Assembly (NCBI RefSeq): GCF_006345805.1
Contig: NC_043009.1
Location: 34,534,001 to 34,598,000 of the forward strand
Direction of reading: 5' to 3'
DNA length: 64,000 bases
From: Octopus sinensis
Lineage: Eukaryota
The translations under genes and the position numbers were made by a program. Numbering within the stretch: position 1 is the first letter of the stretch; each line of letters opens with the position of its first letter. Shown here one piece after another: positions 30,456 to 54,760 of the stretch. Below the pieces are notes generated by a model. The model ran no database searches and was not told the DNA's origin. It saw nothing but the letters and a program-made list of their open reading frames with translations.

Positions 30456-30543
<88 letters not shown>

Positions 30544-30852
30544 GTACAAAATGGGACAAGAACGTAAAACACCCAGAGAATTAGGTGATACAAGAAAGGG
30601 ACCACAAAATATCCAGATAGACGATACAAAGAAGACAAGGACGGGTCATTCGGAGTTTTCTTTCCTCAGTCGAGTTCCAGATTATCTCTGCAATTTCGGC
30701 TGGTTATACTCGAGATTGCTCCAATCTGGCCATCCCAAAGGAAAAACTTAGCTAAGAGCATTAGATTCCTTGGAAGAAAGCAGTGAATATATACGAAAAC
30801 AAGGACGGTAAAAACGGAGAAAGTTACACAAATACAAATAACAGGACATAAC

Positions 30853-30853
<1 letters not shown>
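30544..30853 (-). mobile_element. Short microsatellite-embedded repeat carrying a conserved structured motif
   Basis: Homologous to 53770-54085; lies between TA and CA arrays. Confidence 0.65.
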
Positions 30854-30919
<66 letters not shown>

Positions 30920-36331: not shown

Positions 36332-37520
36332 CACATAAAATGTATTATATGCATGATATATTACCTAAAATGTATCATATGCCTTATATATTACATAAAA
36401 TGTATCATATGCATAATATATTACATAAAATGTATTATATAGGCGCAGGAGTGGCTGTGTGGTAAGTAGCTTGTTTACCAACCACATGGTTCCGGGTTCA
36501 GCCCCACTGCATGACACCTTGGGCAAGTGTTTTCTACTATAGCCTCGGGCCGACCAAAGCCTTGTGAGTGGATTTGGTAGACGGAAACTGAAAGAAGCCC
36601 GTCGTATATATGTATATATGTATGTGTGTGTGTTTGTCCCCCTAGCATTGCTTGACAACCGATGCTGGTGTGTTTATGTCCCCGTCACTTAGCGGTTCGG
36701 CAAAAAGAGACCGATAGAATAAGTACTGGGTTTACAAAGAATAAGTCCCGGGGTCGAGTTGCTCGATTAAAGGCGGTACTCCAGCATGGCCGCAGTCAAA
36801 TGACTGAAGCAGGTAAAAAGTGAGTAAAGAGATATGCATAATATATTACGTAAAATGCATCATATGCATAATATATTACATAAAATGTATTTTATGCATA
36901 ACATATTACGTAAAATGTGTTATATGCATAATATAGTACATAAATGTATCATATGCATAATATATTACATAAAATGTATCATATGCATAATATATTACAT
37001 AAAATGTATTTTATGCATAACATATTACGTAAAATGTGTTATATGCATAATATAGTACATAAATGTATCATATGCATAATATATTACATAAAATGTATCA
37101 TATGCATAATATATTACATAAATTGTATTTTATGCATAACATATTACGTAAAATGTGTTATATGCATAATATAGTACATAAAATGTATCATATGCATAAT
37201 ATATTACATAAATTGTATTTTATGCATAACCTATTACGTAAAATGTGTTATATGCATAATATAGTACATAAAATGTATCATATGCATAATATATTACGTA
37301 AATTGTATTTTATGCATAACATATTACGTAAAATGTGTTATATGCATAATATATTACATAAAATGTATTTTATGCATAATATATTACGTAAATGTTATAT
37401 GCATAATATATTACATAAAATGTATCATATCCATAATATATTACGTAAAACGTAATATATGCATAATAAATTACATAAAAAGTATTATATGCATAATATA
37501 TCACAGAAAATGAATTATAT
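36332..37520. repeat. AT-rich ~29-30-bp minisatellite (ATATGCATAATATATTACATAAAATGTATC) interrupted by a SINE
   Basis: Contiguous tandem units without unique spacers; variant units recur in order. Confidence 0.92.
36442..36831 (+). mobile_element. Full-length SINE family A inside the minisatellite
   Basis: Head, body and tail match other copies. Confidence 0.92.
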
Positions 37521-38213
37521 GAACCAAATAAATGTTGAATAGCAGAGTATATAAAAAATCTCGCGAAGCAACTCCGAATTCGCTACACCTAACGATTAAT
37601 ACAAACGATGCCAAAAATATCCCTTATACAAAGACATTAGAAATAAAACCACACATCAGGAGCATATAAACCCACAAAAAAAGATAATAATGATTAATGA
37701 CATTTTATCACAGCTATGAACAGGAATTGCCCTGCTGAAATAGCAACGGAATAAGTGAAGTAGAGTAGAAGCCACAAGAAGCAGCTGAAGACTCAGAGCA
37801 TCACAGAGAACTAATTTTGCTGAGCTGCCGTACTCACAATTATTTAAGGAGTGTAATAAGATTACTTTTGGATATAACTTTTGCAAGTAGTCCATCGCTC
37901 CCACGGATCTGGTGTAGCTTTTATCGAGCACTGACAATCTCTATGAAAGATAATCCCTCAAGAGGATGACGAAGCTATAAAAGGAAATACTGGACTGAAA
38001 TAAAATGGAATAAAGTAAGAATGCGGTAATAATATGCCGATCAAACAGGCGGCGGCGTCCTCAGTAGGTGGTGTGTTCTTAAAAGATTTGTAATTTAAAA
38101 GGATTTCACCAGACGAAATCATTGCGCGCATCTATACACATATACACATACCTATGTACATACATTCAAACATACCCAGAAATATACACCTCCCTCTCTC
38201 TTATATGTATACA

Positions 38214-47909: not shown

Positions 47910-48844
47910 CATTAAGGACTGAACACGAAAAGTGGACAGTCAACATGCTAGATATAGACGTCAAATCGCCATTCACCACAAAAGATTATGTTCTCAGATC
48001 AAACTCAACACAAAACCATAGCAATAAACAAGTGAAAAATATACGAAATACAATAATTACCCATGTACTAAATTAGTTTCAGCTGTTATTTTCCGCAAGG
48101 AAAACTGCAGCCATCATCAGCATGGTCCGTTATAAATGTAATTTGCTGGACTAGATGCAAACACGATACCGAAATATCGCGTGCATGGAGTTCAGCCTAT
48201 TACATTTGAATATATCTCTCAAATGCCTTTACTTTGGCGCGTTGGAACCCGAGAAAACTAGACTGCAGCTAATAATTAGCAGCAGTTAATTTATCGGTTA
48301 GAGAACATATTTATTTATATAAAATTAATTAAGGGTAGAAATTGATATTTATCAATTAAGACCAGTGGTCTAGCATATTAAAAAAGAATCCGAAGATTAA
48401 AATATTTATATTAATTAATGAATTAATTTTATATAAATAAATATGTTCTCTAACCGATAAATTAACTGCTGCTAATTATTAGCAGCAGGTAATTATTGGG
48501 TAATTATTGTAATTATTGTATTTCGTATATTTTTCACTTGTTTATTGCTATGGTTTTGTGAAACTAATTTAGTACATGGGTACAGCTGAAACTAATTTAG
48601 TACATGGGTAATTATTGTATTTCGTATATTTTTCACTTGTTTATTGCTATGGTTTTGTGTTGAGTTTGATCTGAGAACATAATCTTTTGTGGTGAATGGC
48701 GATTTGACGTCTATATCTAGCATGTTGACTGTCCACTTTTCGTGTTCAGTCCTTAATTGGTATATATAATATTTTAATCTTCGGATTCTTTTTTAATATG
48801 CTAGACCACTGGTCTTAATTGATAAATATCAATTTCTACCCTTA

Positions 48845-52096: not shown

Positions 52097-52209
52097 TATA
52101 TAGAAGGAGCTTCTACAGGACTAGAACTGTTTCATTCAAAAGAAATCATCAGGAAGCTCCTGATGATTTCTTTTGAATGAAACAGTTCTAGTCCTGTAGA
52201 AGCTCCTTC

Positions 52210-52215
<6 letters not shown>
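52097..52215. ncRNA. Palindrome made of two back-to-back type I hammerheads
   Basis: Minus strand 52158-52108: agcttc CTGATGA tttc tttt gaat GAAA cag ttctagtc ctg TA gaagct; same motif on plus strand at 52155-52204. Confidence 0.8.
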
Positions 52216-53709: not shown

Positions 53710-53766
<57 letters not shown>

Positions 53767-53769
53767 TAA

Positions 53770-54365
53770 TATGAAACAAAAATGCAATACAGGACATAAA
53801 ACATTCGGACAGACAGACGACACAAAGGCGGCCAGGAGAAATAACATTAGAAGGATAGGCAAAAAAAGACGGATCACTCGTGGTCTTCTTTCCTCAGTCA
53901 AGTTACCAGAAGTCCTTACTGCCTCGGGTAGTTACACTTGAGACAGTTCGATCTGGTTGCCCCCAAAAAGTCAAGTTAAGAGCATTAGATCTTTTTGTAA
54001 GAAAGCTGGCGAATGTGTACAGCAACAAAGACAAAAACGGAGAACATTGTACATAATTACAAATACAAACAACGAAAATATAACAACAGGTATCTTTCGA
54101 CTGAGAACGAATCAAATTGAGCTGGCGTGAATGAAGTGAAAGCCTAAAGGCAGGAGCTCGGGAGATGGGCGTAAGAGGTGTTGATGGTCGGCAGTCAGGC
54201 CAAGAAAGAGAGATCACTACTTGTCGGACACAGGCCACGTGGAAGGAAGAGAGAGGGGTAGGGGGCAGCAGGATTGAAGGATTAGAAAAAAATCAGAGAC
54301 AAAAGGAAAGGTACAGTGGAGATAAACGAGGGGGAAAAGTGGGAGCCAAAGAGAGTGCCAAGAAT

Positions 54366-54396
<31 letters not shown>

Positions 54397-54554
54397 AGAG
54401 AGAGAGAGAGACAGAGAGAGAGACAGAGAGAGGGAGAACAAGAAAAAGGTAAGAGAAAGAAAGTATGAGGGAAACTAAAAGATAGAGTTAAAGAGTTGTA
54501 CAATTTTAGATACATACCTACTATAAGGTGAGAGGTAGTGGATACGTACGCTGC

Positions 54555-54586
<32 letters not shown>

Positions 54587-54760
54587 ACATAAATGGAAAA
54601 ACATATAAATGGAACAAAAAACGCAATAGAGGATAATAAAACATTCAGACAGACAGATGACAAGCGAGGACAGGAGAAACAACAATTAGAAAGACAGGCA
54701 AAAACACGCGGGGCATGGTTTGGACGGATTGACGTGGAGCTGTCGAGACAACACCTGTAC
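53770..54760 (-). mobile_element. Non-coding element with diverged terminal direct repeats and structured motif, in (TA)n
   Basis: 53770-53871 resembles 54607-54712; 53865-54015 homologous to 30635-30790. Confidence 0.62.

Follow-up and report, generated by a model that had tools for sequence, protein, structure and literature searches.

The window analysed here, a stretch of 64,000 nucleotides of Octopus sinensis DNA, carries on its minus strand two copies of a structured RNA motif that an earlier note had placed in an unknown class. Judging from its letters and pairings, the motif is a hammerhead fold, in which an NUH cleavage site is followed by GAAA and then by CUGANGA and every hammerhead core element is present. 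We consider, with a probability of roughly 80%, that it represents an opened-core hammerhead whose intact copies likely cleave themselves after the NUH triplet in the way described below. A wider proposal is in our view also probable, if somewhat less so. This would be a natural and active hammerhead with a covalently discontinuous core and a four-way junction, an overlooked ribozyme of Naiad Penelope-like elements in five phyla, with the CSG form in nematodes; non-circular forms would be common in animals, where they would set the 5′ ends of copied RNA.

Strand order of the opened core

Read 5′ to 3′, the motif begins with the first strand of helix P0, the P1 hairpin, the stem II strand starting at G10.1 and a strand of helix X. 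There follow a stem III strand, the NUH triplet and a stem I strand, a 4-nt linker, the other stem II strand with GAAA and the other stem III strand, then the second X strand; the 3′ end carries the remaining stem I strand with CUGANGA and the second P0 strand. Core numbering is after PMC10085705. The blocks run S-G-C, in agreement with the non-circular strand order described in the earlier note and different from the circular block order of hammerhead types I, II and III. The same note had seen no stem II. The stem does exist, its 5′ (G10.1) strand being located upstream of the cut site, and the backbone is therefore open between A9 and G10.1. Block C is not contiguous as it is in type SGC; stem II covaries with the upstream strand.

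Stem II occurs as GGCUGG/CCAGCC, GGCCGG/CCGGCC, GGCCU/AGGCC, GGACA/UGUCC, GGGCA/UGCCC and GCCCAA/UUGGGC, and every variant ends in the pair adjoining GAAA. GAAA itself is placed between stems II and III, together with the A15.1-U16.1 and G10.1-C11.1 pairs. Sequence comparison and covariation show stems I, II, III and X, the core letters, the free N7 and the G10.1-C11.1 register beside GAAA. Helix X connects the far ends of stems II and I. In the families parsed, P0 begins 0-2 bases past A9, P1 ends at G10.1 and the 5′ strands of P0 and P1 are contiguous, from which we infer a stacked four-way junction. P0 would stack on P1 and stem II on the A9.G12 pair, the resulting four-way junction replacing the missing A9-G10.1 bond, and helix X would tie stems I and II together.

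A kink-turn separates two helices by a bulge of three bases and, next to it, tandem G.A and A.G pairs. Octopus families have such a bulge where stem III meets X, accompanied by GA steps that face each other; the four G/A positions of this sequence pattern are conserved in 10 of 12 clusters, with 189-201 of 206 copies retaining them. In these families the kink-turn would bend X back from stem III. By eye, the pattern is absent from the coral, acanthocephalan and clam shrimp forms.

Copy 1 belongs to subfamily A and occupies 30655..30781 (all features of the two copies lie on the minus strand), with its core letters intact. Its P0 5′ strand (30774..30781) pairs with 30655-30662, directly 3′ of A9. 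The P1 hairpin (30735..30773), between the P0 5′ strand and G10.1, corresponds to the first stem and the first shared segment of the earlier description. The stem II 5′ strand (30730..30735, from G10.1) pairs with 30698-30703, and the 5′ strand of helix X (30724..30729) with 30677-30682. Block S (30708..30719) comprises a stem III strand, an AUC triplet and a stem I strand, and the cut is predicted, by analogy with known hammerheads, to fall between 30714 and 30713. Block G (30690..30703) comprises the stem II 3′ strand, GAAA and a stem III strand. The predicted kink-turn between stem III and helix X is formed by a three-base bulge and GA at 30683..30689, facing the GA of 30720-30721, while 30663..30675 carries a stem I strand and CUGAGGA, i.e. 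block C without its stem II strand. One A.G mismatch is found in stem II and an extra base in P1. The AUC triplet is used by several subfamilies; it is described as rare in natural hammerheads in the available part of PMC1636495.

Copy 2, from subfamily B (53883..54006), has a GUC triplet with a predicted cut between 53942 and 53941, and it is probably dead because its GAAA has become GAGG. The two copies, which share 70% identity over 149 nt (E 3e-9), are both decayed and for this reason miss the strict opened-core descriptor presented below. The four stem pairs previously listed are present in these two intervals, and the three shared segments were likewise found in both copies. These segments had been called invariant, which is true of the two window copies but not of the subfamilies, between which they vary. 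In CUGAGGA the fifth letter is free, all four bases being found there in 206 copies.

A scan of the window against Rfam returned 127 matches at E<=5, none overlapping either copy; they are driven by microsatellites only. The suggestion that neighbouring families carry hammerheads was not confirmed, since a descriptor covering forms other than the minimal and dimeric ones gave a single weak type I candidate among the 37 CUGANGA sites of the window (48060-48130, at 48120, minus strand, with a long stem II loop). The window also contains an AT-rich minisatellite of 30-nt period at 36333-37521, with about 23 copies in its main array, and a near-perfect long inverted repeat at 52100-52210 with CUGAUGA on both arms and TA microsatellites on either side.

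Conservation and covariation in the window family

At least 1,933 copies, falling into several subfamilies, make up the window family, and their stems I-III show compensatory changes. In the host genome the core pattern gave 1,933 matches versus 3 for the reversed control, and the tail 20-mer of the repeat 1,782 versus 0 for its control. Each window copy had more than 1,300 first-look candidates, 40 being scored per search. The 206 full-length copies cluster into several subfamilies, and both GAAA and complete stems are seen in the majority patterns of subfamily A (37 copies) and subfamily B (34 copies). Each core position holds the hammerhead letter in 179-206 of the 206 copies and the core is intact in 143, in a set biased by the retrieval of some loci with a pattern that needs the core. 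N7 is G in 91 copies, U in 63, A in 33 and C in 17, with a gap in 2, and H17 is C in 191, U in 8, A in 5 and G in 2. One lone and very divergent member (L141:2598-2764, minus strand) differs entirely in stems II and III and carries GUA at its predicted cleavage site.

Covariation was examined on 26 copies selected from the 206, namely the closest ones to every subfamily majority together with three outliers and both window copies. In this alignment 89.1% of 956 cells pair (94.6% in stem II, 85% in P0) and 17 of 37 pairs change on both sides, namely 5/5 in stem II, 4/5 in III, 3/6 in I, 2/5 in X, 2/8 in P0 and 1/8 in P1. None of 500 shuffles reached 17 of 37 and a slid structure paired at most 48% of the cells versus 89%, controls which do not remove kinship and concern a structure derived from the same 26 sequences. 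The earlier note was right to describe a covarying, pseudoknotted structure, and probably also in suggesting a self-cleaving ribozyme. P0 covaries weakly within the window family, and it is imperfect in subfamily A and in Naiad_Obim. Since members of one subfamily resemble each other by descent, it is the comparisons between subfamilies and between families that carry the real signal.

Unrelated families, Naiads and known hammerheads

Applied to 254 loci (764,701 bases), the strict descriptor found 78 opened-core matches and 1 SGC-like match, with 0 on shuffled sequence. It revealed two further families, L198/L061 and L011/L114, each having a P0, a P1 and stems of its own. Their examples at L198:2330-2520 and L011:770-935, both on the plus strand, are unrelated in sequence to the window family. 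A Naiad-type family is another opened-core family, bringing the host genome to four in all; the motif taken from published octopus Naiad consensuses gave 364 matches there versus 0 for the control. The three families besides that of the window have the same stems, P0 and P1 included, and blastn between the four at E<=0.05 detected no similarity.

In its available part, PMC8557442 reports no canonical hammerhead for Naiads, which prefer (TA)n and form tandem and inverted copies, and it flags 'HHR_half_core' in eight Naiad cases with core halves 35-50 nt apart. By eye, we recognized the opened-core layout in the 3′ UTRs of 10 of the 54 Naiad consensuses of its supplement: Bfor, Chem-3, Movir-2, Amil, Aacu, Anas, Plae, EuTe, Obim and Ovul, several being named from their order in the consensus file. 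Their hosts are a ctenophore, five cnidarians, an acanthocephalan, a clam shrimp and two octopuses (five phyla). They amount to about seven independent cases, as the coral trio and the octopus pair each form a near-identical set. The reading was based on CUGANGA matches in the consensus file, those split by line breaks being missed, and on three parts in full. Stem I is weak in Bfor, and in Plae the motif is situated shortly downstream of the apparent ORF stop. Six nematode consensuses display, by eye, the type-CSG form with block C intact; according to the available text of PMC10085705, hammerheads of this type were previously represented by only two metagenomic sequences. In the file as available, 38 of the 54 consensuses, all bivalve ones included, were assigned by eye to neither form.

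The CUGANGA matches of the spider, ostracod, Octopus minor and hemichordate Naiads parse as neither opened-core nor CSG. In the spider and ostracod elements they are located in GC-rich structured 3′ UTRs and may be further arrangements. Clytia Naiad 3′ UTRs contain two conserved GC-rich stretches unrelated to the hammerhead, which may be other structured RNAs.

Type-SGC hammerheads (HRIMA-1 and variants), as far as PMC10085705 was available, likewise exhibit the S-G-C order and all core letters. Their stem I-stem II linker is typically 3 nt, compared with 4 nt here, and their 'I' helix, which links stems I and II at their other ends, resembles helix X. In type SGC block C is contiguous, whereas here the G10.1 strand and the X strand lie 5′ of block S, and P0 and P1 are inserted at A9/G10.1. 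An SGC ring that is closed and then reopened between A9 and G10.1 gives the opened-core motif. Type CSG is the same strand ring opened elsewhere, with block C intact, and is not the form of the window. SGC, CSG and opened-core forms may then represent three openings of one ring of strands. In the same portion of that source, HRIMA motifs are almost only metatranscriptomic, none but one GCS candidate coming from genomes of known organisms; the opened-core form, unlike them, is found in animal genomes in thousands of copies.

PMC10085705 assumes block C to be uninterruptible by more than one or two bases. From the available part of PMC3705267, a viroid hammerhead tolerates a single additional base at the A9/G10.1 step, and a C or G inserted there is strongly harmful; variation at this step, the extra A10 of the CChMVd plus-strand hammerhead, is a one-base bulge. 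In the PK hammerhead a pseudoknot replaces stem II, and A9, G10.1 and C11.1 are in one short stem-loop (PMC11300833, available part). Neither form, as described there, opens the backbone or inserts helices at A9/G10.1, and the PK hammerhead is not a precedent because it keeps the A9-G10.1 stem. The literature searched, which covered sources outside subscription journals, held no description of opened block C or permuted hammerheads in Naiads. The opened-core form would therefore be a new hammerhead variant, on the published portions available, and related variants could sit in the supplements of PMC10085705.

Repeat units, insertion ends and probable cleavage

Full units are about 750 nt long, non-coding and bounded by microsatellites. 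The full unit with copy 2 extends over 53743..54558 (minus strand), with microsatellites at both ends and 79% identity over 824 columns to the unit at locus L057. The 3′ tail of a preceding unit (54600..54716, minus strand) forms with it a partial tandem, pseudo-LTR-like. Copy 1 lies in a 5′-truncated unit at 30540..30860 (minus strand, ends approximate), between TG/TA microsatellites. A dinucleotide repeat precedes 19 of 31 unit starts and another unit's tail precedes 13, and inverted, 5′-truncated unit pairs are found at L004, L014, L024, L123 and L125.

The family thus exhibits the traits of a Naiad-dependent repeat: (TA)n-type targets, partial tandem and inverted copies, and 5′ truncation, which it has in common with Naiads as described in the available part of PMC8557442. 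Unlike Naiads, it is devoid of ORFs, including the single ORF with N-terminal GIY-YIG endonuclease and RT of autonomous Naiads, and its sequence aligns with neither Naiad_Obim nor Naiad_Ovul. By tblastn with a putative ORF tail, no Naiad ORF was detected beside window-family copies or in the window, matches being confined to Naiad-type loci; extending eight such loci upstream yielded nothing beyond broken ORF remnants in two. No blastn match was observed between the window family and the Naiad-type 3′ end, for the one Naiad family of the genome compared. Animal non-LTR retrozymes are also short, non-coding, tandem hammerhead units thought to depend on Penelope-like elements (PMC7229834; 10.64898/2026.07.22.740005, available parts). 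They carry type I hammerheads, whereas the window family carries the opened-core form in units of about 750 nt with a microsatellite, mostly dispersed and 5′-truncated. Retrozymes accumulate as circular RNA; window-family RNA reads, compared with partial units, contained no circular joint. The latter source, a preprint, mentions Naiads only as a clade in the portion available.

The 5′ ends of copies bear on cleavage. The count covered the first 100 tail matches, which are all situated on contig C1. Seventeen lie at +1..+15 from the predicted cut versus 2 at -14..0; 19 lie at +16..+84 and 3 at -44..0. For the +1..+15 bin, about 3 are expected from neighbouring bins (Poisson P 4e-8, uncorrected, truncations near the cut having been noticed before the count). 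The peak, 14 ends at +4..+8, is on a TATA (+6) that may sharpen it by microhomology with the (TA)n target; near another TATA, at -79, only 3 ends are found. A small cluster occurs at +47..+57. Twelve apparent ends near -126, probably an alignment artefact of a subfamily indel, were kept in n=100 and not interpreted. Because many insertions start just past the predicted cut site, the motif likely cuts, and a share of templates would begin at the cut.

The other 5′ ends give some ground to a different explanation, as 64 of the 100 copies start at or upstream of the predicted cut, i.e. read through it. The fold would derive from a hammerhead, with no or negligible cutting since its core opened, and be kept for recognition by the Naiad RT or by a host kink-turn-binding protein, or for shielding the RNA; RT recognition had been raised in the earlier note and stays a minor rival. 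The kink-turn is indeed conserved, an opened block C is without tested precedent, and structure alone may stall copying, as the +47..+57 cluster could reflect. Three RNA runs of a single study, each read to about 6% and from a library that looks unstranded, covered both strands with no start or end pile-up at the cut. However, the 5′ ends drop sharply at the predicted cut. Although stem sequences have nothing in common between families and across five phyla, the catalytic letters, the H17 rule and a free N7 persist. We regard this explanation as unlikely.

Alternatively, the motif could cut, but not as a cis four-way junction, P0 and P1 being a switch or a spacer and the active form arising between tandem units or after refolding. 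Dimeric minimal hammerheads occur in Penelope-like elements, and units form partial tandems here (the 13 of 31 unit starts with a tail upstream). P0 is imperfect in some families. Moreover, nested minimum-energy folding, unremarkable for four of five copies (z -0.1 to -1.0) and uninformative, predicted for one copy of subfamily A a competing helix in which CUGAGGA is buried. Against this, P0 at A9 and P1 at G10.1 with 0-2 spare bases in unrelated families is what a fixed junction predicts, and such a mode of action seems to us quite improbable.

Another ribozyme class (hairpin loop A, twister, HDV-like) or an inherited repeat with chance pairings is hardly credible: the 3′ part of subfamily B does present AGAA opposite N-GUC, the consensus of hairpin-ribozyme loop A, and copies within a subfamily share descent, but subfamily A does not sustain the loop-A pairing, which the other families lack, no Rfam match falls on the motif, the descriptor gave 79 matches versus 0 in shuffles and the same layout recurs across phyla. 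After comparison by eye with known consensuses, we dropped the readings as hairpin loop A, twister, pistol, hatchet or HDV-like RNAs, whose pairings fail across subfamilies. Variation of N7 and of the P1 loop likewise led us to drop a pairing between this loop and CUGANG.

We thus favor the opened-core hammerhead; type-SGC and type-CSG hammerheads, for comparison, cleave in vitro (PMC10085705, available part). The repeat would be a non-autonomous unit mobilised by a Naiad Penelope-like reverse transcriptase. Cleavage would split tandem transcripts into units, and copying, primed at the (TA)n target, would run back to the RNA 5′ end. Copies of cut RNA would be short and start just after the cut; uncut, re-ligated, tandem or circular RNA would give rise to longer, partial-tandem copies.

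If true, this would overturn the working rule that the CUGANGA block is uninterruptible and provide a natural site for inserting whole helices in the hammerhead core, useful for switch design. The opened-core families also suggest that descriptor-based ribozyme censuses miss whole families. Non-circular RNA permutations, until now a matter of rare metatranscriptome contigs, would become a feature of animal genomes. The absence of hammerheads reported for Naiads would be resolved, at least for part of the clade, and a testable link would be established between cleavage and the copying of Penelope-like elements.
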